Source of the DNA: an uncultured Ignavibacteria bacterium
Lineage (GTDB): Bacteria > Zixibacteria > MSB-5A5 > CAIYYT01
NCBI GenBank assembly: GCA_964584025.1
Contig: CAZOYE010000010.1
Location: 14,515-78,514 of the forward strand
Direction: 5' to 3'
Length of the DNA: 64,000 bases
Under the pieces are notes generated by a model. It had not been told where the DNA came from. It made no database searches and was given only the letters and a program-made list of their open reading frames with translations. A program made the translations under genes and the position numbers. Below are positions 4,505 through 44,374 of this stretch, one piece after another. Each line of letters starts with the position of its first letter. The stretch's first letter is position 1.

Positions 4505-4512
4505 ATCCTTAA

Positions 4513-7117: not shown

Positions 7118-7129
7118 TCGTTCATTCCG

Positions 7130-8284: not shown

Positions 8285-8285
8285 A

Positions 8286-8741: not shown

Positions 8742-8747
8742 TGACGC

Positions 8748-9182: not shown

Positions 9183-9254
9183 ACCTCCTGGTAATAGTTC
9201 ACCGCGCCCCGCTGGTTACGTTGATATTTTCGACCAATTTTGGACTGAGTTAAG

Positions 9255-16078: not shown

Positions 16079-16178
16079 TTCTAACTCACTTTGTCAAAGC
16101 GACTGTGGCAGAGCACTCGGCTGCTCCGCCTCCGTAACAGGCTGCGCAAAGCGATACCGCAGCCTGGTGCTACTCCCG

Positions 16179-16886: not shown

Positions 16887-17037
16887 CGAGCGGCAGCCGG
16901 CTGAGCCGGACCACTTCCTGTTTGCGCATGCGCAGCGCCCAGATCACGACGCCAATGAAGGCGCCAAAGAAGAGCAGCAACGTGATGATCGGGTACAACT
17001 GGACGCCGCCGATGGAGCTGAGGACTTCGCTGATCAT
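16849..17037 (-). CDS. CcoQ-like small membrane subunit
   Basis: 62 aa with one TM (LYPIITLLLFFGAFIGVVIWAL). Lies between ccoNO and ccoP. Confidence 0.4.
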   Translation of the reverse strand: MISEVLSSIGGVQLYPIITLLLFFGAFIGVVIWALRMRKQEVVRLSRLPLDDSTTLDDCGDR

Positions 17038-19169
17038 TGGGCCACCTGTGTTCCGACTTTGATGTCTGTTCCCAAGCGCTGCAAATAGGCGATCAGTGCG
17101 ATGATTTCATCGTCCCAGTTGGCGATGATCTTCGACTCTTCCAGCCTCTTGGTGATTTCCATCCCCTGCTTCTGCATATCGTCCAGGGCCTGCGCTTCAT
17201 AACCCTCCGGGTACGGCACGCCGAGCGAGCGCATGGCGCCGATCTTGCCGACCGTGTGATCGGTGTTGAGCTTGTCGGTTAGCAGCCACGGGTAAGGCGG
17301 CATAATCGAACCGGGCGACATCGAGGTTGGGATTTCCATATGCTGGTAGTGCCAGGCATCAGGATACTTTCCGCCGACGCGGTGCAAGTCCGGCCCGGTG
17401 CGTTTTGATCCCCAGAGAAACGGATGATCATAAACGAATTCGCCGACCTTGGAGTACTCGCCGTAGCGCTCAGTCTCTGAGCGGAATGGCCGCACCATCT
17501 GCGAGTGGCAATTGTTGCAGCCTTCGCGAATGTAGATGTCGCGTCCTTCAAGTTCGAGCGGCGTGTACGGCTTAACCGAGGCGATCGTGGGGACGTTCGA
17601 CTTCACCAGGAAAGTCGGGATGAACTCGATCACGCCGCCAATCGCTACGGCGACGAGAGAAAGAAGCATGAAGCGTACCGGCTTGGACTCGATCCAGCGG
17701 TGACCGTAGCCTTCCTTGAGGTCGAAACGCTCTTCGTGGTGCGCAACCAGACCCGGCGCCTGCGCTTCCTCGTTATCAACGGCTTTCCCGGTTTTGATCG
17801 TCTTAAAGAGGTTGTAGCCCATCACAAAGACGCCGGCCAGAAACAACGTGCCGCCGAAGGCGCGGATCGCGTACATCGGCGTGATTTGCGAGACGATTTC
17901 CAGGAAGTTCGGATACTGAAGCAATCCGACATCGTTGAATTGCTTCCAGAGCAATCCTTCCGTCCAGCCGGCAAAATACATCGGCACGGCATAGAAGACG
18001 ATGCCCAGCGTCGAAATCCAGAAGTGGAAGTTTGCCATCTTGCGCGAATAGAGCTGGGTGTTGAACATTCGGGGAACGAGCCAGTAGAGCATACCAAAGG
18101 TCAGCAATCCGTTCCAGCCAAGTGCGCCGACGTGAACATGGGCGATCGTCCAACTGGTGTAGTGCGAGATGGCGTTGACGCTCTTGATCGAGAGCATCGG
18201 TCCTTCGAAGGTCGCCATGCCATACGCTGTAACGGCAACGACCATGAACTTGAGCACGGGATCTTCGCGCACTTTGTCCCAGGCGCCGCGCAGGGTTAAC
18301 AAACCGTTGATCATACCGCCCCAGGAGGGCGCGATGAGCATGATCGAGAAGACGGTACCGAGCGACTGTGCCCAGTCGGGAAGCGCCGTGTAGAGCAAGT
18401 GGTGCGGCCCGGCCCAGATGTAAATGAAGATCAGCGCCCAGAAGTGAATGATCGAGAGTCGGTAGGAAAACACCGGACGTCCCGACATCTTCGGAATGAA
18501 GTAGTACATCAATCCGAGGTAGGGCGTTGTCAGGAAGAACGCGACAGCGTTGTGTCCGTACCACCACTGCACGAGCGCATCCTGAACCCCGGCATAGACC
18601 GGATAGCTCTTGAAGAGGTTGACGGGGATTTCAATCGAGTTCACGATGTGCAGCATCGCGACCGTTACGACAGTCGCGATGTAGAACCAGATCGCGACGT
18701 ACATGTGCCGCTCGCGCCGCTTGATGATGGTGCCGAACATGTTGATGGCAAAGATCACCCAGACGGCGGCGATCAGGATGTCGATCGGCCACTCGAGTTC
18801 CGCGTATTCCTTGCTCGTCGTCATCCCCAGCGGCAGTGTAATTGCGGCGAGCACGATAATCAGTTGCCAGCCCCAGAAGTGCAGGTGGCTGAGCACGTCC
18901 GAGAACATCCGGGCCTTACACAGGCGCTGGAGCGAGTAGTAGACTCCCGTGAAGATGCCGTTGCCGACGAAGGCAAAGATCACCGCGTTGGTATGCAGCG
19001 GCCGCAGCCGGCCGTAGGTGAACCACGAGATGCCGTGATTGGCGCCGGGCAGGAATATCTGCAGGGCGATGATCACCCCGACCAGCATCCCGACGGCACC
19101 CCAGACAACCGTGGCGTACGTAAAGTATCTGACAATCTTGTTGTCATAACTAAACGTTTCGAGTTGCAT
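17034..19169 (-). CDS. ccoNO: cbb3-type cytochrome c oxidase, fused CcoN (catalytic heme-copper subunit)-CcoO (monoheme cytochrome c)
   Basis: 711 aa. 12+ TM with His ligands (HVHVGALGW). C-terminal CNNCHSQMVRPF heme c site. Confidence 0.9.
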   Translation of the reverse strand: MQLETFSYDNKIVRYFTYATVVWGAVGMLVGVIIALQIFLPGANHGISWFTYGRLRPLHTNAVIFAFVGNGIFTGVYYSLQRLCKARMFSDVLSHLHFWGWQLIIVLAAITLPLGMTTSKEYAELEWPIDILIAAVWVIFAINMFGTIIKRRERHMYVAIWFYIATVVTVAMLHIVNSIEIPVNLFKSYPVYAGVQDALVQWWYGHNAVAFFLTTPYLGLMYYFIPKMSGRPVFSYRLSIIHFWALIFIYIWAGPHHLLYTALPDWAQSLGTVFSIMLIAPSWGGMINGLLTLRGAWDKVREDPVLKFMVVAVTAYGMATFEGPMLSIKSVNAISHYTSWTIAHVHVGALGWNGLLTFGMLYWLVPRMFNTQLYSRKMANFHFWISTLGIVFYAVPMYFAGWTEGLLWKQFNDVGLLQYPNFLEIVSQITPMYAIRAFGGTLFLAGVFVMGYNLFKTIKTGKAVDNEEAQAPGLVAHHEERFDLKEGYGHRWIESKPVRFMLLSLVAVAIGGVIEFIPTFLVKSNVPTIASVKPYTPLELEGRDIYIREGCNNCHSQMVRPFRSETERYGEYSKVGEFVYDHPFLWGSKRTGPDLHRVGGKYPDAWHYQHMEIPTSMSPGSIMPPYPWLLTDKLNTDHTVGKIGAMRSLGVPYPEGYEAQALDDMQKQGMEITKRLEESKIIANWDDEIIALIAYLQRLGTDIKVGTQVAQ

Positions 19170-22820: not shown

Positions 22821-24776
22821 CTACTTTTTCTCAAGCAGAATCAGGAAATTCTTGGGCGAGGAGTAATCATCGTACGCCTTCTTAAACGCGGGGTATTCGT
22901 CGGTGTCGATGTCGATATCACTGATCGTAACCAGCCCGCTGTAATAGACTTCGGTCGAGTCAGCGTTCAGCGACAACTGGGACTGCCAGATACCGAACTC
23001 ATTTTCGATCTTGAGCGGGTCTGCAACGTAGACGGCCTTGTAGCCCGCCGGCAGGTGTACAACGCCTTCTTTCTTGACGGTTAGATGATCCTCCAACTTC
23101 ATGTCGTAGTTCCGGACGTCCTGCCCGGGATTCACCGGAATCTGGGCGAACGAAAACGGCACGTCTTTCATCCGAAAGATCATCATATCTCCCTGCACGA
23201 TGCCGAACTCGGGAGTCCAGTAATCCTGAGCAACTTGCACGCTCGCCATCAGGTTCGCCAGGTCGGAGACCTGGTAATCGCGATTCAGCGAACCTTCGCC
23301 CATGTCGTTGGCAGTAGCGAGGAAGAACTGCTCGCGCTCCTTGGGAGTAGCGTCTTTCAGGGTTGCGCGCGCCATGTAATCGAATAGTCCGGTTAACTGG
23401 CAGCCGGCGGACCCATCCACGTCGCCGTTGGCCTTGACGAGCATCTCGAAGCGGCAGTCGGCCAGATTGGCATCGGCCGGCAAATCTGCTACAGGCAGCA
23501 ATTCGCTGGAGTCATCTCTAACCAGCAGTCCGGTTGAACCCTGGCCGTTGGGAGTATAACCGAATTGCGCTTCGCTGCTGAAGGGATCGATCCAAAGAGC
23601 GCGGCCGCGAAAGTTGGGGACGTAGACATAAACCGCGTCAAACTGCTTCATTGCCGGATGCTCCTGCGCCAACACGGCGTCGCTGCGATTGACGTAATGC
23701 GGGAAACACTCGATTCCCGCAGAGCGCAACAACGAGACCAGCAGCACGCTCTTGTCGCGCCAATCGCCGTACTTGTTTGCCAGCACGAGATTGGCATCGT
23801 TGGGCTCATACCCGGCGAGTCCGAGCGGCAGGGAGTTTCCGGCGACGCTGCGAATTTCCTTAATCACAAAGAGGCCGAGCCGCTCGATCTTTTCATCGGC
23901 CGAGGTCGCGCCCTTGGTTAGTGCCGCAGCCTTCTTCGCGATGTCACCGTCGGTCTTGACGTGCTTGTAGAACTTGGCGCCAACCCACTTGCCTATCTGA
24001 TCCCAGTCAAGAGCGTTGGTGTATACCAGTCGCGGGGCGATTCGGTTCATGTCGGGCATCGACGGCTCAGAAATCACCTGCGCAATGTTGGTAGCAGTCC
24101 AGTTGTGAGTCACCTTGCCGTTCTCGGTCGAGGTCGAGTAATCAACGCCTTCATTTTGGTAGGTATAGCGAATCGCGAACTCCTCCGGCACGGTGAGCGA
24201 AATCTCCTTGAATCCAATCGGATCGAATCCCTGGAAAAGGTCAGCTCCCCAGGTGAAGCGCTCCTCATCGGACTCGGGGGCCTTGTGGAAGACCCGCAGG
24301 TGGAGTTCGATCGTCACGCCAGTCGCCATCGCCGGGAAGTTCACGACCTTCTGCATGATATTCGAATAAATCGCGGCATTGGCGAGTCCCGCCGGCGTGA
24401 GATCATGAATTGCCTTGGCTTCGACCGGCATGATACTGCCGTCGGCCCTGTGCGTAACCGCCTTGATCACAACGACACTATCGTTGTCCTTGTTGTACTT
24501 GTACTTTACGTCACCCAGGGTCTCTTTACCGCGATCGGCCAGAATCTTCACAACGTAAAGCCAATCGGTCGTTCCGCTGCCATCGTCATTGAGCACAGTA
24601 GCCCTCTGATTAACGAGCGTGTAACCGGCGGCCTGCGGGTAGCGTTCAGCGGTCGGCGCGGAAGCGATCAACCGCGAGATCTCTTCATCGGTAAACGTTT
24701 TCGTGACCGCCCCTGACGATGCGCATAGTGAGAGTGCGATAGCGGCAGCGAGTATTACCAGGAATGTCTTGTTCAT
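22821..24776 (-). CDS. Secreted DUF3857/transglutaminase-like protein, predicted catalytically inactive paralog (Cys to Trp)
   Basis: Signal peptide. KYGDWRDKSVLLVSLLRSAGI aligns to KYGVCRDVATMMVAMLREVGIP of the neighbouring paralog, with the catalytic Cys replaced. Confidence 0.55.
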   Translation of the reverse strand: MNKTFLVILAAAIALSLCASSGAVTKTFTDEEISRLIASAPTAERYPQAAGYTLVNQRATVLNDDGSGTTDWLYVVKILADRGKETLGDVKYKYNKDNDSVVVIKAVTHRADGSIMPVEAKAIHDLTPAGLANAAIYSNIMQKVVNFPAMATGVTIELHLRVFHKAPESDEERFTWGADLFQGFDPIGFKEISLTVPEEFAIRYTYQNEGVDYSTSTENGKVTHNWTATNIAQVISEPSMPDMNRIAPRLVYTNALDWDQIGKWVGAKFYKHVKTDGDIAKKAAALTKGATSADEKIERLGLFVIKEIRSVAGNSLPLGLAGYEPNDANLVLANKYGDWRDKSVLLVSLLRSAGIECFPHYVNRSDAVLAQEHPAMKQFDAVYVYVPNFRGRALWIDPFSSEAQFGYTPNGQGSTGLLVRDDSSELLPVADLPADANLADCRFEMLVKANGDVDGSAGCQLTGLFDYMARATLKDATPKEREQFFLATANDMGEGSLNRDYQVSDLANLMASVQVAQDYWTPEFGIVQGDMMIFRMKDVPFSFAQIPVNPGQDVRNYDMKLEDHLTVKKEGVVHLPAGYKAVYVADPLKIENEFGIWQSQLSLNADSTEVYYSGLVTISDIDIDTDEYPAFKKAYDDYSSPKNFLILLEKK

Positions 24777-24797
24777 ATCGTTAGATCCTCGCCTCCG

Positions 24798-26786
24798 CTA
24801 ATTCGTGGTACCGTTTTCACGCTGCATGATCAACTCGCCCCGCGCGGACTTGGAGGCTGCTCTCATCACGGCTTTGAACTGGGCATACTCCGCCGGAGAC
24901 ATCTCCTTCGCGTTGATGAGCAGTTCCTTCTGGTAGGTCACCTTCGTGCCTCCGGTCGCCAGTTCTTCGGCCTGTGCGCTGCCGTAGGTCATCCGGTATT
25001 CAACCGGCCCATCACTCAGCGCGACCGGGTCTGGCATCGACTTGACCTTCATGCCGGGTGGAAGATTGATGATTTCTTCTTCGCTGGCGCCAAACGTAAA
25101 ACCGAGCAGGTACGGATATTTGCGTTCGGGGAGCGAGGCATTGGCGAGAAGGAATTTGGAAATCAGTTCGAAGGCGCCCATGGAGACCGGGCTTTTCATC
25201 AGGACGAACTCGCCGGCCTCGGTCGGGTAGTTGTCGACCTGGTAGCTGAATTTGACTTCAAACGGCTTGGTCAGATCTTCGGGATCGCTAACCTTAAATC
25301 CGGTCAGTCGGGTACCGGGATAAACCGCCTGAACCACGTAGTTCCAGATCATCGACATCTGCGCCGAGGGCATCGACTTGGCCCAGGAGCGAAGCGCCAG
25401 ATCGTAGATGCCGTCGGTGGCGATCGTCACATCCGAAGTGAACAGACCTGTCTCAGTGAGATTCGAAACGGCTTTGATCGTCCCCATGTTTTCGCGAGCC
25501 GGGGTCAGCGGCGTATCGGCCAATGTCTTCCCTTGATCGTCACAGACAAGCACTTGCTGTTGGCTTTCCACGGCAGGCAGCCAGTCGATCGAGTTGTCAA
25601 CCGTCGGATCGGCGTACGTGTAGCTGCCGTCGGCGTTTTTGATCGCCACAATCGCGTGGTTGAAGTAAATATGCGGAATGTCGTAGCTGACCTTGTCTCC
25701 CATCATTGTTAGCACGACGTCGGAGGGAATTCCGACCTCGCGCAGCATGGCCACCATCATAGTCGCTACGTCGCGGCAGACACCGTACTTCGTTTCAAAC
25801 GTCTCGTTAACCGGCTTGGGTTCGAAGCCTTTCTTCTTGCCCGTTCCCAACCCCATATAGCGCACCTTCTGCGCGACGTAGTGATAAATCGCGTCGATCT
25901 TCTCGTCCTGCGACGTTTTGCCGGCAACCAGATTGTTCACCTCGGCCTTGAACTCGTCGCTCATCACCATTTGCTTGCCCGCCATCTCATTCCACCAGCG
26001 GCTGATCTTCTCCCACGACTCGATAGTGCTGAATATCACGGTTGGAGCGACATCCGTGAGCGGCGGCATCGCCGGCTCTTGAATAATGCGATCGACGTTC
26101 TCAACCGACCAGGTATACTTGATCTTGTCGCCCTGCTCCTTTTGCGAGAACTTCACCTTGCCATTCTTGACGAGGTGACGCAGCGGCTTTGATTTCGGGC
26201 CGATAACGGTGACTTCCTTGTTCAGAATCGGATTGAAGTTCTGGAAGACCTGCAGGCCGTCGAATTCGCCCTCCATCGGCGTGTGAAAAAGATAATCGTT
26301 AACTGACAGTTCAATGCAGTCGCCGACTTCCAGGTTCTTGAAGGGGATCACGCGCTCCAGTGCATCGCTCTCGTAGATGTTCATATATTCGGACGAAGTC
26401 GAAGAGATATCCTTCATGTCTTCGGCCGGGACATCAATCACGCTGCCGTCCTGCTTGATGACGCGTGCCGCCGTTACGACAAGGCTGTCGTAAATGCGAT
26501 AGTATGGTATGCGGATTTCGCCGTAGTCCTTGAGTCCGGCTTCGGTGACGATGCGAGCAAGCATGTAGTCGCGGGTAACACAACTCCCGTCATCCTGGTA
26601 CTCATAGTCCGTTTGATTCTTGATCATAATGGCGTTGGCATCGGGATACTTTTCGAGCCCTCCCGCCTTCTTGATCAATTCTGCCGTCTCCTTACTCAGT
26701 TCCGAAGCTTGCAGCGGCGCCAGCAGCATGAGAGCCAGAGCCAGCGTCGCAAGCAGCAAGCCGGAAATCGAAATGATCCGCTTCAT
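24798..26786 (-). CDS. Secreted DUF3857/transglutaminase-like protein (intact Cys-His core)
   Basis: Signal peptide. Transglutaminase core YGVCRDVATMMVAMLREVGIPSDVV...HIYFNHAIVAI. Confidence 0.65.
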   Translation of the reverse strand: MKRIISISGLLLATLALALMLLAPLQASELSKETAELIKKAGGLEKYPDANAIMIKNQTDYEYQDDGSCVTRDYMLARIVTEAGLKDYGEIRIPYYRIYDSLVVTAARVIKQDGSVIDVPAEDMKDISSTSSEYMNIYESDALERVIPFKNLEVGDCIELSVNDYLFHTPMEGEFDGLQVFQNFNPILNKEVTVIGPKSKPLRHLVKNGKVKFSQKEQGDKIKYTWSVENVDRIIQEPAMPPLTDVAPTVIFSTIESWEKISRWWNEMAGKQMVMSDEFKAEVNNLVAGKTSQDEKIDAIYHYVAQKVRYMGLGTGKKKGFEPKPVNETFETKYGVCRDVATMMVAMLREVGIPSDVVLTMMGDKVSYDIPHIYFNHAIVAIKNADGSYTYADPTVDNSIDWLPAVESQQQVLVCDDQGKTLADTPLTPARENMGTIKAVSNLTETGLFTSDVTIATDGIYDLALRSWAKSMPSAQMSMIWNYVVQAVYPGTRLTGFKVSDPEDLTKPFEVKFSYQVDNYPTEAGEFVLMKSPVSMGAFELISKFLLANASLPERKYPYLLGFTFGASEEEIINLPPGMKVKSMPDPVALSDGPVEYRMTYGSAQAEELATGGTKVTYQKELLINAKEMSPAEYAQFKAVMRAASKSARGELIMQRENGTTN

Positions 26787-26942
26787 AATGTTCTTCTCCT
26801 CACCAGTGAAGATGCGATATAATTTTTCAATTCTTTTCAGATCCTTGGTACTTCCCGAAGAGTGCAGTTTAGCAGGCGGGACGTCGCCTGGACAACTGCA
26901 GATTCACTCGGCGTAATATACTTGGTGCCCGATGAATTTGTT

Positions 26943-27242
26943 TCAGTTCTTGTTCTCATTGTCGTTTCGAAGCTCCACTAACGTTGCCCCCCAGGAAGAA
27001 CTCGATTGGCTGTCGAGTCTAAAGCTCTGGACATGCTCGTTTCGTTCGAGCAAGGCGTGGACGGTGCGTCTTAGATTGCCGATTCCCTTGCCGTGAATAA
27101 TCCGGAGCTGGCGAATCTTCCTGGCGAGACAAGCCTCGATATACGCCGGAATCAACTCGCGGACATCACGCGGCGCGAATTCGTGGAGATCAAGTACACC
27201 ATTGATCGGGTACTCATGAATCGGTTCAGAATCATCGCTCAT
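26943..27242 (-). CDS. Smr domain protein
   Basis: LDLHEF...ARKIRQLRIIHGKGIGNLRRTVHALL Smr/MutS2-C-like motif. Confidence 0.75.
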   Translation of the reverse strand: MSDDSEPIHEYPINGVLDLHEFAPRDVRELIPAYIEACLARKIRQLRIIHGKGIGNLRRTVHALLERNEHVQSFRLDSQSSSSWGATLVELRNDNENKN

Positions 27243-27415
27243 TTGACTGACAGATAAAGTGCTACTTTAGGCTTGCTCCACAAGCGATTTTTCCTATATT
27301 AGCGGAGCCATTTGGTTTGGCATCTTGGGCGCGACCCGGGAAACAGGTACCTCGCACTTTTCACGAGCTATTGTCTACTACTTCAACCGCTTGGTAAACA
27401 CCAGGCTAACAACAA

Positions 27416-29443
27416 GTGACTGTCATCGTGATCCGTCTGGCTTTTGCCATCGGCCTATTCTGCTCCCTGCACACCCACATCTGGGCTTACTCGGTATCGA
27501 CTTCCGGAACCGACATTCTGCCAAGCGTTACCATTCCCGCGAACCTGCAGGTCTCGGATCGCTCCGCTCTGCCTGTGGCATTCGAACTTCCGCGGCACTT
27601 CCCCACCGACACCTCAGGTCTCAAGTTTGATGTGGAGGCGTATCAACCGGACAATCCCCGCCACCTTCTTGACCAAGCTTTGGGCGACGGAGATCGAGGC
27701 TCAGGCGGGTTGGGTCCCTGCAAAAGCTTCAGTGGCGCAACATACACGGGCTGGGACCCTCCGGATCCGCAGATTGCGGTCGGCCCGAACCACATCGTTG
27801 AAGTCGTCAATAGTGCGATCTCTGTCTTCGACAAGAATACCGGGAATTTGCTGCTCAGCGCCTCCGCGCAATTCTGGTTTGCCGGCGTGCAGCCGGCGCC
27901 GCCGAGCACGTTTATTTACGACCCCAAGGTGATTTATGATCGCGTGTCGGGACGATTCGTGTTGTTGTTCTTGTGCACCGACGGTGTCGAGAAGGCGGCA
28001 TTCTTGCTTTCGGCCTCACAAACATCAAGTCCACTCGGAAACTGGTGGAGCTACTGTCTTGATGCGACGCTTAATGGAGCAAGTCCGAGCGGGAGTTGGC
28101 CCGACTATCCAGGGTTGGCTTGCGATTATGATGAAGCTGTCTATCTCAGCGCCAATATGTGGGATTTTGCCGGCACTTACATGTACCCCAAGGTCAGGAT
28201 TATTCCCAAGAACCGGTTGTATAGCGGTATGTCTCTGACCTACTCAGATATCTGGGATATCCGTTACCACAACGCAATGGCTGCCTTTGCCGTCAAGCCG
28301 GCGACAATGACGAGCGACGCCAACGGCATGTTCCTCTGGAGCAATCAATGGGCCGGTGGAGACTATGTAACGTATTGGAAGATCACCAACCCGCTTTCAA
28401 CGCCGGTGCTGACAATCCGGCCGAAGGTCAATGTCGCGGCGTACTCGATGCCGCCCAACGCAGCGCAAATGGGCGGGAGTAGCATTGGGATGATCGGCCC
28501 GATGACTCAAGATGTGATCTTTCGCAACGGCAAACTCTATAGCGCCTTCGATCAGGCATTCAATTGGGGTGGCGGAGCCGTCGCCGCCATTCGCCTGCTC
28601 GGCATTGATACTACGATATCGTCGGCGGTCGTCGATTACGTCATCGGCGGTCCGGGGAAACACTACTATCTGCCGAACATCTATGTCGATGCCGACAACC
28701 GCATTTTCGCGGCCTTCAATCGGTCCGGCGCCGATGAGTACGTTGGAGTCCACTATATCGAGAATTTGTCGGGCGATGTTCGTTCCCGGCCGCTCAAGAA
28801 CGGTGAGGGTCCGCGAGGCGGCAGCGCTCCGGTGCGCTGGGGCGATCACTGCGGGATTTCCGGGGATCCAAACGACGCGTCCAAGGTCTGGATGTGCGGC
28901 GAATATAACACGAGCTCTCCATTCCACTGGGGGACGTGGATCGGCAACCTGCCTTCGGGTGTTCCCTCTCCCGCCGTCGCCACACCCGCCCCTGGCAGCG
29001 GTCAGAAACCGCCGGTGAAGCTTGCCTGGGATCCGGAACTTCCCGCCGAGAGTTATTCACTGCAAATCGACGACGACTCCAGTTTTGCCTCTCCCCAGAT
29101 TAGTGTGGTTGTCGACACCAACGTTTATGTCGCCGCTAACCTGTCGGTTGGGACCGTCTATTTCTGGCGGGTCAGGGGCATGACGGCGTGTCCGGACAAC
29201 CCCTGGTCAAACACCTTTTCATTCAAGGCTTGCAGTCGACAGCCCGGCGATGTTGACGGTAACGGAATCGTCACAATCAGCGACGCTGTCTACCTGATTA
29301 CATTCATCTTTTCCAACGGGCCGATGCCGACGCCGCAAGAGGCGGGCGACTCGGACTGCAACGCGATCGTCAACGTGTCTGACGCCGTTCGCGTCATCGG
29401 CTATATCTTCTCCAGCGGCGTGGCGCCTTGCGGTCCATGTTGA
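27416..29443 (+). CDS. Secreted protein of unknown function with Fn3-like module and Cys-capped double dockerin-like C-terminal domain (CTD)
   Basis: Hydrophobic N-terminus. C-terminus [28 protein letters not shown]...[32 protein letters not shown]. Confidence 0.5.
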
Positions 29444-29481
29444 AGGGGGATTTCCAGCGAGCCTGTCATCGACGATCTTCA

Positions 29482-29510
29482 TTGACAAAATGCGTCGATT
29501 ATCGTATCTT
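29482..29510 (+). promoter_or_regulatory. Candidate sigma70-type promoter (TTGACA-17-TATCTT) upstream of the reprolysin-like gene
   Basis: Direct sequence match. The -10 element lies 43 nt upstream of ATG 29553. Confidence 0.35.
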
Positions 29511-29552
29511 ATTGTCCAACAACGCCAATCAACCCATAATATTGGGAGTCTC

Positions 29553-31355
29553 ATGCGCATTGCATTTATCGCATTGACCGCAGTACTGATCGCGGCTGCT
29601 GGCTCCGGCCTGCTCGCGGCTCGACCCGACACAATTCGCGTCGAAGTCGACTACATGGTGGGCAACGGCCACTCGCACAAGCTGCAGCCTGCCGAAGTGG
29701 ATATGATCGTGGAGGCCTTTGCCTGCCAGGGGATCGTGATGATTATTGAAGTCTCCGACTCCGTTCCGCACTTCGACAATATGACCGGAGCTTCGTTCTT
29801 CACAAATACAGCGCCAAACGGCTTCGCCTGGTACAAGAACAATTACATGGATCATCTTGGCGACCCGGGTTGGCATTACTGCATCATGGTTCACCAGTAC
29901 AACGGTTCGGGCAGTTCGGGACTGGGAGAAATATTCGGGGACGATTTTATTGTCTCACTCGGCAGTTGGTCGGGCCAGATTGGAACGCCCTTCGATCGCG
30001 CGGGCACTTTCATGCACGAACTCGGGCACAATCTGGGACTGCGCCATGCCGGAAACCAGGATGAAGGCGCGATTGGGCAGTACAAGCCCAACTATGCCAG
30101 CGTGATGGCTTATCGTTACCAGGTCGACGCGGTGCGGCGCGGCATGCTCTGCACCGAGTTGGCGGATCTTCTGCTGATCGACCGCAAGAATCTCGATTAC
30201 TCCGACGGCACCCGGCCGTCGCTTGATGAAAATGCGCTGATCGAGGCCGACGGCATCGGATACGGTCCGGTCGATTGGAACTGCAACGGCATTATCGATG
30301 CCGGCCCCGTCTCACAAGACCTAAGGAATCCCGGCTGGTGTTCGTCGTCTTCGACGCTGCAAGTACTGAACGACTACGATGACTGGGACAATCTCACAGA
30401 TGTTACGCTATTCAAGTCGGGGCATATTCACCAGAGTGACGAAATAGTAGAGTGCATCACCTACGAAGAAGTGCTGGCGATGCGAGCGGCCAAAGCGGAT
30501 GTCTGTGATGGGCCGTTTGTCGAAGTCGAAGACTGTACCTTCCAGTACATTTGTAACGACGTCGACCAGGACGGCTGGGGCGACCCGGACGACACGCTGA
30601 ACAATTGCGAACTCGACAACTGCGGTACCGCATTCAATCCGGATCAATCAGACGTCGACGGCGACAGTCTTGGCGATGTCTGTGACCCGGACGCCGACGG
30701 CGACGGCCTGCTGAATGCTGCCGACAACTGCTGGCTGGTTGTCAACCTCGGCCAGGAGGATGCCGATGCCGACAGCGTTGGCGACGCCTGCGACAATTGC
30801 CCCGCGGTTTACAACCCGGAGCAACTAGATGAAGACGACGACGGCAACGGCGATCTTTGCGACGGCCGCGTGCACATTTACACGCCGACTACGCTTCCGA
30901 CGGCTTACAAGAACCAGCCGTATTTCTACCAGTTCGTCGGGGTCGGCGGTATCGGTACGCTCACGTGGACATTCCTCGGCGGCGACACACCGTTCGGATG
31001 CGATTTCAATGGCGGCACAGTCGGTACCTTGACCGGTACACCGTTCTTCTCGGCGCAGTTCTTCTTCACGGTGGAGTTGTCCGACTCGAATGTCCCGGCC
31101 TCGAAGGACACGATCAGCGTTTCAATTACCGTTGTCGACCCGCCCTATCTCTGCGGCGACGCCGACGACAGCGAGATCATAACAATTTCGGATGCCGTGT
31201 ACCTGATCAACTACATCTTCGGCGGAGGTCCAGCGCCATCGCCGCTCGAGGCCGGTGATGCGGATTGCAGCGGGATTGTGACAATCTCTGATGCCGTATA
31301 CCTCATTGCTTTCATCTTCGGTGGCGGTCCGGCGCCTTGCGCAGCCTGTCCATAG
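29553..31355 (+). CDS. Secreted reprolysin (M12B)-like metzincin with thrombospondin type-3 (TSP3) Ca-binding repeats and Cys-capped double dockerin-like CTD
   Basis: Signal peptide [36 protein letters not shown] matches HExxHxxGxxH. Repeated DxDxDGxGDxCDNC / NPxQxDxD units. CTD ends ...[14 protein letters not shown]. Confidence 0.7.
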
Positions 31356-31387
31356 GCTGACAGAAATTCAATCTCCGAACTTTGCGA

Positions 31388-31417
31388 AGAGGAACGCCGG
31401 GCGTTCCTCTTTTTTAT
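31388..31417 (+). terminator. Rho-independent terminator after the reprolysin-like gene
   Basis: GAGGAACGCC gg GCGTTCCTC followed by TTTTTTAT. Confidence 0.6.
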
Positions 31418-31528
31418 CCCTCTGCCAAACCTGCGAGCGAACGCGTCAAAAAACAATACCTAAATCGATGTATATACTCTATATTAACTGACGATCGCAG
31501 TTGCAGACACGGACCCGGGGAGAATTCG

Positions 31529-34500
31529 ATGAACTCACGTTTCTATCTCAGCCTTTTGTTGGCCGGACTTGCGGCTCTCTATGCGTACACGCCGTCGGCG
31601 AGCGCCGATGATTGCGGCACGGAGCTGACTGCCGCCGACATACAGGCCATATCATCTCTGCTTGACGAGCAATCGCTGGCCCGCGAAACGCGCTCCAACG
31701 ACTTCTATGACCTGCCGATCGCCATGCACATCGTGCGGCAAAGCAATGGTACCGGCGGAATCAGCGCCGCAGAAGTCGAGGCGTCCATCGACAGCGCGAT
31801 CATTCTGTTTGCGCAGGTCAACGTCTCGATCTACGAAATTCAGCCGGTGAACTTCATCGACGAAGATTTCTTCTATTTTGATATGTCGAGCAGCACGCAG
31901 ATGGACAGTCTCAAGCGCTACGACAAGGTCGCCAATGCGGTGAATATCTACTGGGTGCCGAGCTCTTCCGGATTTGGCTATTGCGGTATTTCGTCGTTTC
32001 CTTCGTCCGGTGTTCAGGGGATCATCATGAACAATAATTGCGGCGGCCTGCTCTCGAAAAACTCGACATTGGTGCACGAAATCGGCCATTACTTCAACTT
32101 AATGCATACTCACGAGCCGGCCTTTGGCATCGAGTGTCCTAACGGCAGCAACTGCACAACAGCGGGAGACCTGGTTTGCGATACGCCGGCCGATCCCAAC
32201 GTCAGCGGACACGTGGGCTTGCCGCCGGATTGCCTCTACGACAACTTCGCTTCTCCGCCGGGCGGCTGCGACGCAACACCCTATAGCCCGCCGGTCGACA
32301 ATATCATGTCCTACTCACGCCAATCATGCCGCGACATCTTGACTCCCGGACAGGTCGACCGTTTTCGTTTCGCCGTCGAGAAGCTGCGGCCGGAGCTGGC
32401 AACCTTGATTAACGGCGTCCTGATCACTCCCCTCGCGGTCAATCCGCTGATTGTGCCACTGGCAACAAAGCAGGACTCGGCGATTGTGCTTCAGAATTTC
32501 GGAGGCAGTGCCGTGACCTTCAACAGCGCGACCTCGGTCTTCGGGAATGTGGTCGTGACCGGAGGAACCCCGGTGACCCTGATGCCGTCGGAAGTCGGCA
32601 ATGTAACCTTCGAGTACGATGCCCTGGCGCTCACGTCGAGCTGCGATCTCGGAGTCGTCACCGATACGATTGTCATCACGATTTCGGCTCCGACCGTGTG
32701 GGAAGTGCGTATTCCTGTTACCGTGAATATTGCTTATGCGATTCCCGCGCAGGCGCAAAACTCATTTCAATCGACCTGTTTGACCTTCACCGTGCCGAAT
32801 ACGCCCGCCCTCGGCGACCGCACTTCGGCTGCATTCTTGGATCCCATCAGCAACGTGCTTTACGACGGTTCATTGTTGCTGGGCCTTATCGACGGGTCAG
32901 ATACCACCGTCTACATGGACATGTTCTCGCAAAGCGATTATCTCGCGGCCGATGGGTTCGTGGCCGGCACCGACGAATACGGCCGCACGACCCAGACCTT
33001 GCGCTTCGCGACCAACGATGCGCGCTTGAGCGGCGAAGTCATATATCATCTTGGCGGCGATATCGGGACCCCGGATAGCTGCCAGGTCATTGAAATCGAA
33101 TATCGCGTGCGCAATGATTGCGATACAAACTTGCAGGTCGTTGCCGGGATCGCCGCGGATTTTGATATCGACGGCTCAGGGTCGAACAACGCCCTTGTCG
33201 ATGGCGTCAACCACATTGTCTATGTCGATCAAGGCGCTCATGCGGCGGGTTTTGCGAATTTGATGCCTTGCCCGGAACAGGGTTCCTTGCGGACGATCTC
33301 CAACGCAGTCTCTATTTACCCCACCAACGGCCTCATTGACGGCGCGACGTACCTGGAGATGGTTTCTCCGAACAGCGGCGATATATTTGCGCAAGACGTC
33401 TCCGTGCTGCTCTCATTCGGCAAATTCCATCTTCACACCGGTACGGAGCGGACATTGCGCGCGGCATTGATGTCTTCCCAGTTCACGGGAGTCGGTCTGC
33501 AAGCTGCCGCCAATGGATTGCGTACTCTGAGCCCACCCGGGCCGTGCTTCCTCGAAGTTCCTCAAATCTACGGTACGATTCAAGAGGCAATCACGGCAGC
33601 GGTTGATGCTGACACGATCGTTCTCGCACCCGGGACCTACACCGGGTTCGGCAACAAAGACCTTGATTTCCAGGGCAAAAAGATCGTCGTGCGCGGCGCC
33701 GGGCCAACATCAACGTTTATCGACTGCGCCGGTTCGGCGGGAAGTCCGAGTCGTGGATTGCGCTTTGACGACGCCGCTGAGAACAGCAGTGTTCTGATTG
33801 AAGGGTTGGCGATCAAGAACGGATATGCTCCTGCTGACGGCCCGAGTTTTCGTCCGAACGGGGGCGCGGTTATTGTCATGAACGGCGCTTCGCCGACTTT
33901 CCGCAACTGCCGCTTCGAGTTGAACTTTGGCAAGCGCAATGGCGGTGCGATTTCCGTCGAGGTCGGGTCAAGTGTGGCACTTGAAAACTGTCTCTTCGTT
34001 GACAACTCCGTCTTCGACCCCCTGGACAACGAGTATTGGGGAGGCGCAGTCTATCTTGGGTCATCAACTTCCGCGGTGATCACCGCTTGCGAATTCATCA
34101 ACAACTCGGCATTTGCCGGCGGCGCACTCGCGTTAGACAATAGCGCTGTAACGATTGTTTCCGGTTGTCGGTTCATCGCCAACAGCGCCCAGTTTGCCGG
34201 CGTCGTGATTTGCGACGCTGCGGCAGCCGACTTCAACGGCTGCGCCTTCGCCGATAACTTCGCGGAGATTGCAGCGGGGGTTGGCTACTCGTTTAACGAG
34301 ACATTGTCGTCAAACTTCACGAATTGTACATTCGTCGGCAACTTCCTGTCGACCCCAAATCCAAATTCAGGAAGCGTCTATTATGCCCAGGATGCGGCTG
34401 TCGATTTCAGCCGCAGCATTTTCTATGACAACAGCGGCGATGAAGTGCTGGTGTGCAGTGGCACTGGCGCTTTCACAATCGACTGCTCCAACATTTTTGG

Positions 34501-35269
34501 CAATGCATCCGGTGATTGGACCGGCTGCGTCGCCAGTCAGTCGAGCAGCAACGGCAATTTCTCGGCTGATCCGATCTTTTGTGACCTGCCAGGGGATGAT
34601 TTCCGGGTCAGAAGTTCTTCGCCCTGCGCGCCGGCAAACAACTCATGCGCCGTTCTGGTCGGCGCTGGATCGCCCGCCTGCGGCAATACGCCAGCAGGAA
34701 GCGACGTAGCTGTCGCTGTGACCGACAGCGTGACGGTGACATTCAACACCGTGACCGACGACGGTGAAACTTCGGTGACGATCTCCGAAAGTGGACCGAA
34801 TCCGCCGGCCGGATTTGAAATTGTGCCATCGACGCCGGAGGCCTACTACGAGATTTCGACGACAGCACCGTACTCTGGCGTGATCGAGATCTGCATCTAC
34901 TACGATCCGGCACAGGTTACCCCCGGTAACGAGGCTGACTTAAAGCTCTTCCACTACGATGGATCAAACTGGTCCGATATCACCAGTACCATTGATCAAG
35001 GCGCCAATGTGATATGCGGCGAAACGACGTCGCTGTCGCCGTTTATCGTCGCGCGGCCGTCGTACATTTGCGGCGACGCCGACGGCACGGCGATTGTAAC
35101 GATCTCTGATGCAGTGTACCTGATCGGCTACATTTTTGGCGGCGGCCCGGCTCCTTCCCCACTGGCGAGCGGCGACGTCGATTGCAGCGGCATCGTGACG
35201 ATTTCGGATGTAGTCTACTTGATCAACTACATCTTCGGCGGCGGCCCGGCACCGTGCGCGGGGTGTTGA
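31529..35269 (+). CDS. Secreted M43 (pappalysin/ulilysin)-like metzincin fused to right-handed beta-helix repeats and Cys-capped double dockerin-like CTD
   Basis: Signal peptide MNSRFYLSLLLAGLAALYA. VHEIGHYFNLMHTHE plus CDTPADP. Repeated NxxAxxGGA(I/L)xxxxS beta-helix-type units. CTD ...[13 protein letters not shown]. Start moved to ATG 31529 because the terminator at 31388 lies inside the longer ORF. Confidence 0.7.
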   Translation: MNSRFYLSLLLAGLAALYAYTPSASADDCGTELTAADIQAISSLLDEQSLARETRSNDFYDLPIAMHIVRQSNGTGGISAAEVEASIDSAIILFAQVNVSIYEIQPVNFIDEDFFYFDMSSSTQMDSLKRYDKVANAVNIYWVPSSSGFGYCGISSFPSSGVQGIIMNNNCGGLLSKNSTLVHEIGHYFNLMHTHEPAFGIECPNGSNCTTAGDLVCDTPADPNVSGHVGLPPDCLYDNFASPPGGCDATPYSPPVDNIMSYSRQSCRDILTPGQVDRFRFAVEKLRPELATLINGVLITPLAVNPLIVPLATKQDSAIVLQNFGGSAVTFNSATSVFGNVVVTGGTPVTLMPSEVGNVTFEYDALALTSSCDLGVVTDTIVITISAPTVWEVRIPVTVNIAYAIPAQAQNSFQSTCLTFTVPNTPALGDRTSAAFLDPISNVLYDGSLLLGLIDGSDTTVYMDMFSQSDYLAADGFVAGTDEYGRTTQTLRFATNDARLSGEVIYHLGGDIGTPDSCQVIEIEYRVRNDCDTNLQVVAGIAADFDIDGSGSNNALVDGVNHIVYVDQGAHAAGFANLMPCPEQGSLRTISNAVSIYPTNGLIDGATYLEMVSPNSGDIFAQDVSVLLSFGKFHLHTGTERTLRAALMSSQFTGVGLQAAANGLRTLSPPGPCFLEVPQIYGTIQEAITAAVDADTIVLAPGTYTGFGNKDLDFQGKKIVVRGAGPTSTFIDCAGSAGSPSRGLRFDDAAENSSVLIEGLAIKNGYAPADGPSFRPNGGAVIVMNGASPTFRNCRFELNFGKRNGGAISVEVGSSVALENCLFVDNSVFDPLDNEYWGGAVYLGSSTSAVITACEFINNSAFAGGALALDNSAVTIVSGCRFIANSAQFAGVVICDAAAADFNGCAFADNFAEIAAGVGYSFNETLSSNFTNCTFVGNFLSTPNPNSGSVYYAQDAAVDFSRSIFYDNSGDEVLVCSGTGAFTIDCSNIFGNASGDWTGCVASQSSSNGNFSADPIFCDLPGDDFRVRSSSPCAPANNSCAVLVGAGSPACGNTPAGSDVAVAVTDSVTVTFNTVTDDGETSVTISESGPNPPAGFEIVPSTPEAYYEISTTAPYSGVIEICIYYDPAQVTPGNEADLKLFHYDGSNWSDITSTIDQGANVICGETTSLSPFIVARPSYICGDADGTAIVTISDAVYLIGYIFGGGPAPSPLASGDVDCSGIVTISDVVYLINYIFGGGPAPCAGC

Positions 35270-35296
35270 GGATCGCTTACAAGGATCTGCCATCGC

Positions 35297-37396
35297 TTAG
35301 TTGTTTGACTCAGCGAACTCCACAAGAGTCTGGCGCAAAATCGCGTGGAGTTCGCTTCTCTGACTACTGGTCAGCCCATCGTCGTGCGGCGGCCAAATCA
35401 TCGCGATCTCCCCAAGAGCCTCGATTCGTCGTCCCGAGTTGTGTTCGAACTGCAGTGCCTGCAATGCGGCATCGAGTTCACCATATCGCGCGAGGGCCAT
35501 GGCACAGCCAGCCACTTCTTTATCGATAATCGGGTCTAAAGTCCCGATCAATCTTGAAGTGGATATTGCGAGGTACCTGTTGATCAACTGAATTGCGCGG
35601 TTCGCACAGCCACTGGCGTGTTGCGCGTCTGCTATTCTGATAATCATATCCGGCCTTATTCTCATCAAGACCGAATCGCGGGCATCAATTAGAGTAGACG
35701 TCGCTTTATCAATGTAGAACTTCACTCGCCCTTTCTTCAGCCAGATATTGCTCGGATTTCCAAGCGATAGCCAATAGTCCAGTTGCTGGGGGATCTCCAA
35801 TTCCTTGCATTTCTGATCAGCTGCTACGAGAACACGTTCAGCCTCGCTGGGATCAGGCCCGTCATACGGCTCTTGAAACCACTCCATGACAAAGCCGACG
35901 TAATCTTCTGGTGCTTTGACCAACTCAAGAATTGTAAGAAAGTCATCAGTGCTTGCGCCGATATCCTGCAATTCGGATGCAACCTTCGCCAGCATCCAGG
36001 AGCGCAACTGAGCATCGCGAATCCTTGCGATTACACGAAGCGCATGCCCCTTGTTGCTGGTGCGGATGCTGGTGTGTATGTATTGACCCAGTTCGTAGCT
36101 GAAGTCCTGTGTCGAAATCGAATCCTGCAACAGGTCTCTCAGTGGACCATAGGAGGGCACCAGTTCATACAAGTTGGTTGCGACAGGGTACCAAGCATCG
36201 CGAGCTCTTGCACTTGGGACTTTCGGTAGTTCCTTCAGATGCGACTCAATAAGTGCCCGCACGTCATCGATTCGCCCACAGATCAGGAATATTCTCGCCA
36301 GTTGCTCTGTAATCTCGAAATGAGTCCATGGATTTGTTACCGATTCAAACGACTCACGTCCTCTCGCGAGCAAGGTCCGGGTGAGAGCAGAGTCTCCGCT
36401 CGCGTGCGCAGCTGACACGACTGGAAGTGCCAGTCGACAGAAGTCATCGCGTTTTGCCCCCAAAGTTATCTCGGAAGCAACAGCGAGCGCTTCATGTGCC
36501 CCCTCCGAATCGCCCGCCAGGACGAACCGGTCGTACGCCGATAGCAACGCGCGAAGCGACCAAGTCGGGAATTGGTCAGCAGCGCGCCGAGCTTTCTCTA
36601 CGGCCTGACTCAGGTCAACATCGAGATACGCCTCCGCAAGTCTCAAGTCAGCCGATGCCTCCTCACTAGGTAAGGTTGCAAGACTTTCTAATTGCTCCAG
36701 GAGAGCCCGGCGTTCGTGAATTCCAAGCAATGGTGAGACCGCCTCGTAAATCAAGTCGAAACGACCCAAGTACCATTTGGGAAATCGTTGCTTGGCAACG
36801 ACAGTCGCGAGCGCGCTATCGGTTAACTCCCGCTGCAGTTGCTTGTCTCCAAGTCTTGCTGCAAGACTCGCTCCCCGTGAGAAGAGCAAGTACTTTCGGT
36901 CATTAAGCGATGGAGTACACAGTGCCTTCAAGCCACGATCAAGATCGCCATAGTCTAAACTAGTTTGAGTGAGGGCGAAAATCAGACTGTGCCGCGTCGA
37001 GATGTGCGTTCCCTCAACAAGTTCGTGCCTTTGTCCCGTTTTAGGGTCGATAGTCTCCACGCGAGGGAATGATTTTGCCAAATATAAGGCCGCACTAAAC
37101 AAGTCCCCTTCTGCCCCTGCACGCTCTCTAAACATCGGCGCCACCGAATCCATTATGGTCGTGGCACTCATCTCGCGCCCGTTGACCACAAAGCGACTAT
37201 CCGGAGCGAGACTGTGGAGTGCCGACAATGCGCGCTCCAGATATTCCCGAGCTTGAGCAAAGCTGGTGCCCTCTGCGACTACCGCACTGTCGAGTACCGC
37301 CTGGATTTTCGCGCTCGAATCAGCGATCAAGTCGCTGTTATAGAAAGCAAGGACGATGACAATCACCGACCTGAATATTGAATTGGACCCTTTCAT
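35297..37396 (-). CDS. Hypothetical secreted alpha-helical repeat protein (no recognisable catalytic motif)
   Basis: Start at the internal Met MKGSNSIFRSVIVIVLAFYNS (signal/TM). Leu/Ala-rich helical composition. Lower local GC. Confidence 0.4.
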   Translation of the reverse strand: MKGSNSIFRSVIVIVLAFYNSDLIADSSAKIQAVLDSAVVAEGTSFAQAREYLERALSALHSLAPDSRFVVNGREMSATTIMDSVAPMFRERAGAEGDLFSAALYLAKSFPRVETIDPKTGQRHELVEGTHISTRHSLIFALTQTSLDYGDLDRGLKALCTPSLNDRKYLLFSRGASLAARLGDKQLQRELTDSALATVVAKQRFPKWYLGRFDLIYEAVSPLLGIHERRALLEQLESLATLPSEEASADLRLAEAYLDVDLSQAVEKARRAADQFPTWSLRALLSAYDRFVLAGDSEGAHEALAVASEITLGAKRDDFCRLALPVVSAAHASGDSALTRTLLARGRESFESVTNPWTHFEITEQLARIFLICGRIDDVRALIESHLKELPKVPSARARDAWYPVATNLYELVPSYGPLRDLLQDSISTQDFSYELGQYIHTSIRTSNKGHALRVIARIRDAQLRSWMLAKVASELQDIGASTDDFLTILELVKAPEDYVGFVMEWFQEPYDGPDPSEAERVLVAADQKCKELEIPQQLDYWLSLGNPSNIWLKKGRVKFYIDKATSTLIDARDSVLMRIRPDMIIRIADAQHASGCANRAIQLINRYLAISTSRLIGTLDPIIDKEVAGCAMALARYGELDAALQALQFEHNSGRRIEALGEIAMIWPPHDDGLTSSQRSELHAILRQTLVEFAESNN

Positions 37397-37421: not shown

Positions 37422-38057
37422 TCACTTGTCTCTATGAGGATGACGAATCTGTGTCCGTAATGCAAAATCTTTGCGACCACTTGCACCTGCGTTTCGCTTC
37501 GCTATCATGGGAGCGGTTCTCGAGTCGAGCTCCCGGCTTCCGGTCAACCAAATTCGGCCAAAATCACTCTCCCCTCCTTGCCAAATGCTAACAATTCCGT
37601 CCCAAAACACGATTCTCAGGCTGCCATAAACCCCCGAGTCAAGTATGCCGATCTTGACTTCGGCGCTGCCCGTTTCATATTTCCACGCCTCCGGTGCGTT
37701 AATATCAGCGTCTTCAGTGCCGCCGAACTGGCCGGTATTGTCCAGCGCCCACTGCTGCGAGACTGAATCGTCATCTACAACCGCACCGTGCCAGTCGATG
37801 ATTCCGTTCTGTACCGCGCTCAGTACGTCTTCACTCGATTCTAACTCCTGCGCGGCCCGAGAGGCGCTTGCCGAATCTTCAAAGGTCAGGTTGTAAACAC
37901 CTTTCAGAGTCGGCTTCTCAACCCATATCCCGTCACGACCCTCAACCAAGACATAGTCCGAGTCATTGTCCTCAAAGGTTCGATTGATATAAACCGCGTG
38001 AAACGGTTCGAGAGCGTGCAATATCTCTTCAGATAGGATTGTTGATGTGTCACACAA
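37422..38057 (-). pseudogene. Truncated S8 subtilisin gene fragment (propeptide plus the first catalytic Asp region only)
   Basis: QQWALDNTGQFGGTEDADINAPEAWKYETGSAEVKIGILDSGV parallels QYALNNTGQSGGTVDADIDAPEAWDITTGG...VAIVDGG of the full subtilisin at 59707-63540, then diverges. No ATG start (the track's start is TTG), no signal peptide, and no His/Ser regions. Confidence 0.5.
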
Positions 38058-39378: not shown

Positions 39379-39450
39379 ATCTCCGAATCTTGCGTCGTGA
39401 CTGACCGTTACATCTTCGGCGGCGGTCCGGTACCGTGCGCGGGGTGTTGA
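39379..39450 (+). pseudogene. Orphan 3' remnant of a dockerin-like CTD gene (last ~24 codons plus stop)
   Basis: Translates IISESCVVTDRYIFGGGPVPCAGC*. The nucleotides are near-identical to 35220-35272 (acatcttcggcggcggcccggcaccgtgcgcggggtgttga). There is no upstream ORF. Confidence 0.55.
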
Positions 39451-43780: not shown

Positions 43781-44374
43781 GTTGCCGGTTGGTTGAACGT
43801 TTTGATGTACCTACCGTACATTACTCTCAGCACAAACAGCACGTTTTAGTTAACGAATTAGTTAACAGCACAAGCCTCTCACACTAGGCACTGTCATTTC
43901 GATGCGATTTTTGTTACACAAGATCGTGCTCGTGGTGAACTGCGTCCTCCTATTCTCTTTATTCACCAAATCCTCATTCGCTTGACTTGTCGCAACTACT
44001 AACTGATTGAAGCAAGACGCAGTCTTGAGGAGGTGTGATCGCTTCGGGCGGTTCACAGTCGATAAAGCTATCGAGACGAAAATTACTGTGTACGACCTTA
44101 CCCGGGGAAACTAATGCTACGTTCGGAAGTACCGAAACTATTAGCAGAGGTAACCCCAATCTCCAAGATTAGGAATCCTTGAGACAAGTAGTTGGCCTGC
44201 TGACCCACAACCCTAGACAAGTTACGGGTCGCCGCCAGCTCCAAGGTCCCTGATCGGCTGTCGCAGGCTACATGATCTGCTGCAACGACAGGGTACTTAG
44301 GTTGGTGTGCCGCAGCTTTGAGCTGCAAGGCCGGACTACAAACGTATTTTCCTAACTGTGTAAGGAGGAAGTAC

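Follow-up and report, generated by a model that had tools for sequence, protein, structure and literature searches.

What is the short module that closes three consecutive secreted proteins on contig CAZOYE010000010.1 of an uncultured Ignavibacteria bacterium (GCA_964584025.1), and what would it be for? The window, by which we mean the whole stretch of 64,000 nucleotides analyzed (contig positions 14,515 to 78,514), holds on its plus strand three consecutive open reading frames (ORFs) with maximal extents 27416-29443, 29490-31355 and 31382-35269, the products of which share a duplicated C-terminal module of about 66 residues. An earlier note, made from the letters of the DNA, had located genes and modules exactly where we find them and had by implication set the module outside the dockerin family. 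In our analysis it is a type I dockerin, and we consider it probable that this dockerin, in a lineage-specific form stapled by disulfides, plugs into divergent and partly surface-anchored cohesins to give a cell-associated, cellulosome-like assembly. The three genes and their modules are as follows.

27416-29443, plus strand: ORF1, 675 residues, with signal peptide, uncharacterized domain of about 550 residues, Fn3-like segment and C-terminal dockerin
29243-29443, plus strand: ORF1 dockerin module, PGD...DSDC...PCGPC, then stop
29553-31355, plus strand: ORF2, 600 residues, with signal peptide, reprolysin/M12-like metzincin, TSP3 repeats, He_PIG Ig domain and dockerin
31152-31355, plus strand: ORF2 dockerin module, CGD...DADC...PCAACP, then stop
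31529-35269, plus strand: ORF3, about 1246 residues, with signal peptide, M43-like metzincin, beta-helix/DUF5123 region and dockerin
35069-35269, plus strand: ORF3 dockerin module, CGD...DVDC...PCAGC, then stop

The starts given for ORF2 (29553, MRIAF..., as in the public gene calls of 600 residues) and ORF3 (31529, MNSRFYL...) are the likely true ones and, with them, all three proteins have signal-peptide-like N-termini. The description of the three as hydrolases holds for ORF2 and ORF3, which carry peptidase signatures, and not for ORF1, of which the N-terminal 550 or so residues are without match in Pfam, NCBIfam and PDB-sequence searches. The module itself is built of two halves of 33 residues, not about 28 as first counted, with 70% identity between the two in ORF2. 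With a hidden Markov model (HMM) made from four module copies, each copy is recovered at E ~1e-40 from the six-frame translation of the window, a similarity that, judged from the sequences, is far beyond chance. At the nucleotide level the window copies are 60-74% identical, with synonymous differences in 40-56% of the codons for identical residues; this high synonymous divergence marks them as old paralogues under protein-level selection and rules out recent duplication or gene conversion as the source of their similarity.

To place the module in a wider sample, we scanned one genome per species, which gave more than 540 matching stretches, and took the best 78 loci (L001-L078), these deriving from about 12 metagenome-assembled genomes (MAGs) labeled Zixibacteria, "uncultured bacterium" or "uncultured Ignavibacteria". 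A cysteine-masked HMM run over these loci and the window (1.43 Mb together) yields 172 modules in 169 ORFs. Module identity was then computed in three ways. Against Pfam Dockerin_1 (PF00404, gathering threshold 22.9 bits), the isolated modules of ORF1, ORF2 and ORF3 score 28.6, 25.5 and 25.1 bits, the full-length proteins falling slightly under the threshold at 22.4, 19.2 and 19.2 bits; among related dockerin ORFs, 107 of 134 match at E <= 1e-3. When all PDB sequences are searched with a profile of close copies, the eight matches are dockerins without exception. Finally, an AlphaFold2 model of the ORF2 module, built on a 45-sequence alignment, has a pLDDT (predicted local distance difference test) of 94 and three helices at residues 16-28, 36-39 and 49-61, in the canonical layout of helix 1, short helix 2 and helix 3. 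Foldseek with this model against the PDB lists dockerins only in its top 32 (template modeling score 0.59-0.81, root-mean-square deviation 1.6-3.7 Å), EF-hand proteins appearing only at E > 3. Both calcium loops are preserved across 363 unique modules, with positions 1, 3, 5, 9 and 12 being D, D/N, S/D/N, T/N/D/S and D at 93-94%, 95-96%, about 90%, 94-96% and 98-99%, respectively. NCBI likewise lists homologues under the name [quoted passage not shown]. Pfam score, the profile search of the PDB and the predicted fold thus all identify the module as a type I dockerin, and not as a sorting tag of a new class.

This result bears directly on the proposal that the module acts as a cleavable signal for outer-membrane sorting, akin to the C-terminal domain (CTD) of type IX secretion systems (T9SS) or to tags of the PEP-CTERM/LPXTG type, and on the related thought in the earlier note that it might prove to be removed as a canonical T9SS signal. 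The strictly C-terminal position speaks for a sorting signal: 155 of the 159 full-length modules in the sampled loci and window are C-terminal, most ending a few residues from the stop codon, and their cargo is varied, so that the tag is indeed common to unrelated secreted proteins. Dockerin and T9SS CTD are also mutually exclusive, with 169 dockerin ORFs against 12 CTD ORFs in the sampled loci and none having both. The ORF1 family adds a further argument. Its N-terminal domain represents an uncharacterized family kept in Zixibacteria as "hypothetical proteins" of about 680 residues, and three distant homologues (P0290, P0295 and P0296) bear a T9SS CTD (PF18962) where ORF1 has its dockerin, an interchange that fits dockerin and CTD as alternative surface-targeting modules. 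Against all this, the T9SS CTD models (PF18962 Por_Secre_tail and TIGR04183) match neither ORF1-3 nor the isolated modules, and the NCBIfam sorting-tag models do not match the isolated modules, the sub-threshold matches of ORF2 to the CTERM-named proteins MtsC and SVAGG lying outside the module in the TSP3 and metzincin regions. The predicted fold is a three-helix calcium-binding dockerin, not a beta-sandwich; the module ends in ...GGPAPCxxC(P) and stop, with no hydrophobic segment or helix and no basic tail as in the PEP-CTERM, LPXTG, MYXO-CTERM and GlyGly-CTERM layouts; and it also occurs internally, beside cohesins. We therefore regard a cleavable sorting signal as highly improbable.

What sets this dockerin apart is its cysteines. 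Four of them form a frame, C1 lying two residues ahead of the first Asp, C2 being the fourth residue of loop 2, and C3 and C4 lying at 7 and 10 residues beyond the Phe of helix 3, and this frame is exact in 127 of the 155 C-terminal modules. In solved dockerins, Gly occupies the C2 position and the alignments end ahead of the cysteine-bearing tail, which bears out the claim that the frame is conserved and foreign to classical dockerins. Within the array, the second-loop D-x-D-C and the terminal PCxxC(P) at the stop codon are present in ORF1-3 as described, and the opening CGD in ORF2 and ORF3; ORF1 departs from it with PGD and a Cys four residues upstream (CSRQPGD). The earlier note had set its idea against that of an ordinary type I dockerin with cysteine positions that vary between genome copies. 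The module does score as a type I dockerin, whereas its cysteine positions are conserved across further copies.

Covariation over the 363 unique modules, calculated with kinship ignored, shows how the cysteines are related: the association of C2 with C3 is strongest (phi 0.79, p 8.5e-50), followed by that of C1 with C4 (phi 0.48, p 4e-19). C2 and C3 alone are kept in 38 of the 363 modules, and variant frames, for example CxCGD...C-L-GD...HCP, keep an even number of cysteines. Even counts and modules with only C2 and C3 fit two independent disulfides better than a single metal site, and the module is probably locked in this way, as the pattern of cysteines suggests, by a C2-C3 bridge and an N-to-C clasp, C1-C4. 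The covariation pattern thus agrees with disulfide stabilization as originally suggested, and lends no support to covalent modification of the terminal cysteine pair, each terminal Cys being paired with a different upstream Cys and not acting as a free CxxC. The four cysteines could alternatively make up a tetrahedral zinc or iron site, or the terminal CxxC could be a redox or modification motif, as four conserved cysteines including a C-terminal CxxC and the anaerobic traits of the organism, such as a gene for pyruvate:ferredoxin oxidoreductase (PFOR), would allow. The 38 modules that lost C1 and C4 jointly while keeping C2 and C3, and the alternative four-cysteine arrangements, point to pairs behaving independently, unlike a four-ligand site; the proteins are, moreover, Sec-exported, and a DsbD/CcdA-type protein (Pfam DsbD_2) is encoded at 13449-14198. 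A metal or redox role is for these reasons distinctly unlikely. The two helices, for their part, are near-invariant across paralogues with unrelated cargo.

A dockerin calls for a cohesin, and the survey for cohesin-like partners that the earlier note had in mind was successful in related MAGs, though not in the 64-kb window. Searching the module profile against 1.84 billion representative proteins gave 56,300 matches at E <= 1e-3 (19,685 at E <= 1e-10), the best being multi-dockerin proteins, in many of which a recurrent domain of about 170 residues follows the internal dockerins. Pfam's Cohesin model finds nothing at E <= 0.01 in two such proteins (P0150 and P0159). In contrast, a profile of the 170-residue domain searched against PDB sequences retrieves cohesins only, 4dh2_A being the best at E 1.2e-6, followed by 1aoh, 1anu, 1ohz and others; its AlphaFold2 model (pLDDT 92.4) is all-beta, and the top 50 Foldseek matches are all cohesins, 2xdh included, with E down to 1.4e-8. 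By these three approaches the domain is a divergent cohesin. Among relatives annotated as hypothetical proteins, P0136, P0139, P0141, P0150 (the Zixibacteria protein MCC6964050.1) and P0159 alternate the two domains as (dockerin-cohesin)n-dockerin, and could in principle polymerize or self-bind. Two further proteins, P0111 (720 residues, from JGI) and P0112 (1187 residues, Parcubacteria, MBI4122260.1, annotated "peptidoglycan-binding protein"), consist of 9-12 tandem dockerin modules, each flanked by one starting and one ending Cys.

The sampled loci encode 11 cohesin ORFs. Six end in a Cys-framed dockerin and look like small adaptors composed of signal peptide, cohesin and dockerin; three, in L064, L047 and L022, end in a T9SS sorting domain (type A), with Por_Secre_tail scores of 37.5, 27.9 and 34.2 bits, where 27 is the threshold; another (in L056) has a lipobox and just one cohesin; and the last is cut by the locus edge. 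The L064 protein belongs to a family of about 280 residues, many homologues of which have precomputed PF00963 and PF18962 assignments and one member of which is named as Zixiibacteriota. Both L064 and L056 come from MAG CAZNWJ, the closest relative of the window, whose contig L001 is syntenic with it at 81-89% nucleotide identity, and P0326, a 90% identical orthologue of the cohesin-CTD protein, occurs in run SRR14787577 alongside the exact ORF1 protein. Since the lineage has cohesin partners, some of them with T9SS anchors, a role of the module in complex assembly or surface display, as the earlier note had proposed, is likely.

Taken together, these elements suggest the following course of events. 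Dockerin-tagged enzymes would be exported by Sec into the periplasm, where the dockerin may fold around two calcium ions and form its two disulfides, one between the loop-2 position-4 Cys and the Cys that lies 7 residues past helix 3, the other between the N-terminal Cys (of CGD) and the last one. The proteins would then cross the outer membrane. They have no recognizable outer-membrane export signal, and a cluster resembling a type II secretion system (T2SS) in the window is a candidate route. Outside the cell, the dockerin would dock on cohesins encoded elsewhere in the genome, some of which may be held at the surface by a T9SS sorting domain or a lipid anchor, while others would sit on cohesin-dockerin adaptors, allowing chaining, and on the interleaved dockerin-cohesin proteins. 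The predicted outcome is a cell-associated assembly with a cargo of mostly peptidases, beta-propeller proteins and adhesin-like proteins.

Several points weigh against such an assembly. The covariation statistics of the cysteines carry no phylogenetic correction, and extracellular disulfides are less secure in the probably low-oxygen habitat of an organism with PFOR. Most of these cohesins escape Pfam's Cohesin model at E <= 0.01, so that their assignment rests on profile and fold searches. The window encodes no cohesin, and the presence of cohesins in this exact genome is deduced from the closest MAG, together with co-occurrence in a single sample. Dockerin ORFs, lastly, outnumber cohesin ORFs by about 15:1 (169 versus 11, in a sample selected for dockerins). 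The last two points equally favor a module that works without cohesins, as a calcium-dependent stabilizing, solubility or glycan-binding domain, a role suggested for many "orphan" dockerins of genomes that lack cohesins. The very diverse sources of the 56,300 profile matches, which include a Parcubacteria protein with 12 tandem copies, agree with it as well. That cohesins are found in the same MAGs as these dockerins, and often in the same polypeptides, runs counter to a cohesin-free role, and near-invariant helices in spite of unrelated cargo fit a common protein partner; we consider such a role unlikely, and retain the cohesin-bound assembly.

Another variant concerns the export route. Dockerin proteins outnumber T9SS-CTD proteins by about 14:1 in the sampled loci, and a quarter of the CTD proteins are small single-cohesin proteins. 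A disulfide-locked dockerin might bind a cohesin-CTD carrier already in the periplasm and, as a hitch-hiker, pass the T9SS as part of a folded complex, the cohesin becoming surface-anchored. Export of this kind would explain both the strict C-terminal position of the module and the CTD interchange in the ORF1 homologues and, if true, would give the dockerin a second role beside that of assembly tag, as an indirect signal for T9SS targeting. We deem it very unlikely.

Pfam families were counted in 134 dockerin-ending ORFs from the loci, analyzed in two batches of 67, as follows.

TSP_3: 43 ORFs
He_PIG: 25 ORFs
SBBP: 11 ORFs
FG-GAP-like: 11 ORFs
Peptidase M43: 9 ORFs
Peptidase M1: 7 ORFs
GSDH: 7 ORFs
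M12/reprolysin-like: at least 6 ORFs
Beta_helix: 5 ORFs
Peptidase M28: 4 ORFs
BNR: 4 ORFs
Peptidase M14: 3 ORFs
PAD_porph: 3 ORFs
Peptidase M4: 2 ORFs
Peptidase S8: 2 ORFs

The cargo is mainly peptidases, beta-propellers and adhesin-like TSP3/Ig repeats, and not the repertoire of a cellulosome dominated by carbohydrate-active enzymes (CAZymes), no glycoside-hydrolase family being among the 25 commonest Pfam families of either batch. In P. gingivalis, the Porphyromonas-type peptidyl-arginine deiminase (PAD_porph) is a T9SS cargo; the three ORFs with this domain have a dockerin tag instead. The closest MAG alone has at least 30 distinct dockerin-ending ORFs within the 279 kb sampled.

Comparison with known systems shows which parts of this picture are new. 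Like the type I dockerins of clostridial cellulosomes (PF00404; PDB 1OHZ, 4DH2, 3UL4), the module has a duplicated loop-helix (F-hand) with a 12-residue calcium loop, folds into three helices, sits at the C-terminus of secreted enzymes and, by the near symmetry of its helices, suggests a dual binding mode. It differs in its four-cysteine frame, which probably forms two disulfides including an N-C clasp, in an invariant GGPAP turn after each helix and in ending at the stop codon, and the system differs from clostridial cellulosomes in its host, a diderm of the FCB (Fibrobacteres-Chlorobi-Bacteroidetes) superphylum, and in carrying peptidases and propellers instead of CAZymes. Some ruminococcal dockerins have an intramolecular clasp, in which non-covalent stacking between the N- and C-terminal ends stabilizes the fold; the C1-C4 clasp proposed here would, unlike this, be a covalent disulfide. 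Non-cellulosomal cohesin and dockerin modules were reportedly described by Peer et al. in 2009. Such pairs, exemplified by the Archaeoglobus fulgidus cohesin (PDB 2XDH), also occur outside cellulolytic Firmicutes and on proteins unrelated to cellulose degradation, and the present system is distinguished from them by the scale of its expansion, the cysteine stapling and the T9SS link.

The nearest precedent is the cellulosome-like system inferred for the Cloacimonadota "Ca. Stygibacter", in which a T9SS-type CTD on a cohesin scaffoldin serves surface attachment and enzymes with signal peptides, including S8 and C25 peptidases, carry C-terminal dockerins (Williams et al. 2021, PMC8542988). Dockerin-tagged secreted peptidases and T9SS-anchored cohesins are thus shared features. 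The Stygibacter system has one giant scaffoldin with tandem cohesins and carbohydrate-binding modules, and no cysteine frame was reported for it (PMC8542988), whereas we find small single-cohesin T9SS-CTD proteins, a lipoprotein cohesin, cohesin-dockerin adaptors and interleaved dockerin-cohesin proteins, with dozens of dockerins per genome. In the literature searched, we found no paper that links Zixibacteria to dockerins or to type IX secretion, and nothing relevant on Zixibacteria and cellulosomes. The dockerin family, non-cellulosomal cohesin-dockerin pairs and a T9SS-CTD-anchored cohesin scaffoldin with dockerin-tagged peptidases are already known; the four-cysteine staple, the scale of the Zixibacteria expansion, the Pfam-invisible cohesins, the small single-cohesin T9SS proteins, the lipoprotein cohesin and the interleaved architectures appear to be new, being absent from the literature found.

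The proposed assembly would amount to a large cohesin-dockerin system, apparently devoted chiefly to proteolysis and adhesion, in a phylum of uncultured Gram-negative bacteria that is common in soils and sediments, and standard annotation undercounts such systems, their cohesins being largely invisible to Pfam. The link between cohesins and the T9SS offers a model for the display of enzyme complexes by diderm bacteria, and the Cys-stapled dockerin with its small cohesins could serve as more robust affinity parts in synthetic assemblies.

The array of three genes is real, and does not comprise all module copies in the window, which has three more and one relic.

59707-63540, minus strand: S8 subtilase, 1277 residues, with a Cys-framed dockerin at its end (module about 59707-59922)
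63822-63998, minus strand: gene 3' end, cut by the window edge, with a Cys-framed dockerin (...ADVNCD...PCSACP, then stop)
44318-49267, plus strand: beta-propeller (PQQ_2-like) protein, 1649 residues, with a C-terminal, Cys-less and classical-looking dockerin (about 49061-49267)
39400-39447, plus strand: relic, an orphan dockerin 3' end (YIFGGGPVPCAGC and stop) without an upstream gene body

The Cys-less dockerin (GDVNDDD...GDVNNDG...QSAFVF, then stop) scores 35.2 bits on Dockerin_1, above the Cys-framed copies, and may stand for a second class of dockerin specificity within this genome. The relic is intergenic, with a GC-rich hairpin and a T-run after it, and looks like a deletion remnant, a sign that dockerin genes may undergo turnover. 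The ORF1 orthologue of the closest MAG (L001 7708-8301) is a 197-residue form with an in-frame internal deletion (possibly an assembly artifact), comprising a signal peptide, about 150 residues and then the second dockerin half only; the three-gene array is therefore not conserved. A promoter and terminator scan of 26800-35700 performed no better than on shuffled sequence.

As for its setting, the window belongs to the chromosome of a diderm organism. Genes for a secretin, GspE/GspF-type ATPase and platform proteins and pseudopilins, of a T2SS or type IV pilus, lie at 3233-12186 (minus strand), a cbb3 oxidase cluster with FixG, FixH and DsbD_2 at 13449-19169 (minus strand), the DsbD_2/CcdA-type thiol-disulfide membrane protein being that encoded at 13449-14198, and the PFOR gene at 55909-59544 (plus strand); together these indicate a diderm and probably microaerophilic organism. 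Directly upstream of the array, at 22821-26786 (minus strand), are two adjoining paralogues of 651 and 662 residues with DUF3857 and a transglutaminase-like core. At 37422-38057 (minus strand) lies a 211-residue ORF without Pfam match at E <= 0.01, containing ...DADINAPEAWKYETGSAEVKIGILDSGV..., similar to the beginning of the catalytic domain of a subtilase; the ORF then degenerates and overlaps the next one, and may be a truncated S8 pseudogene.

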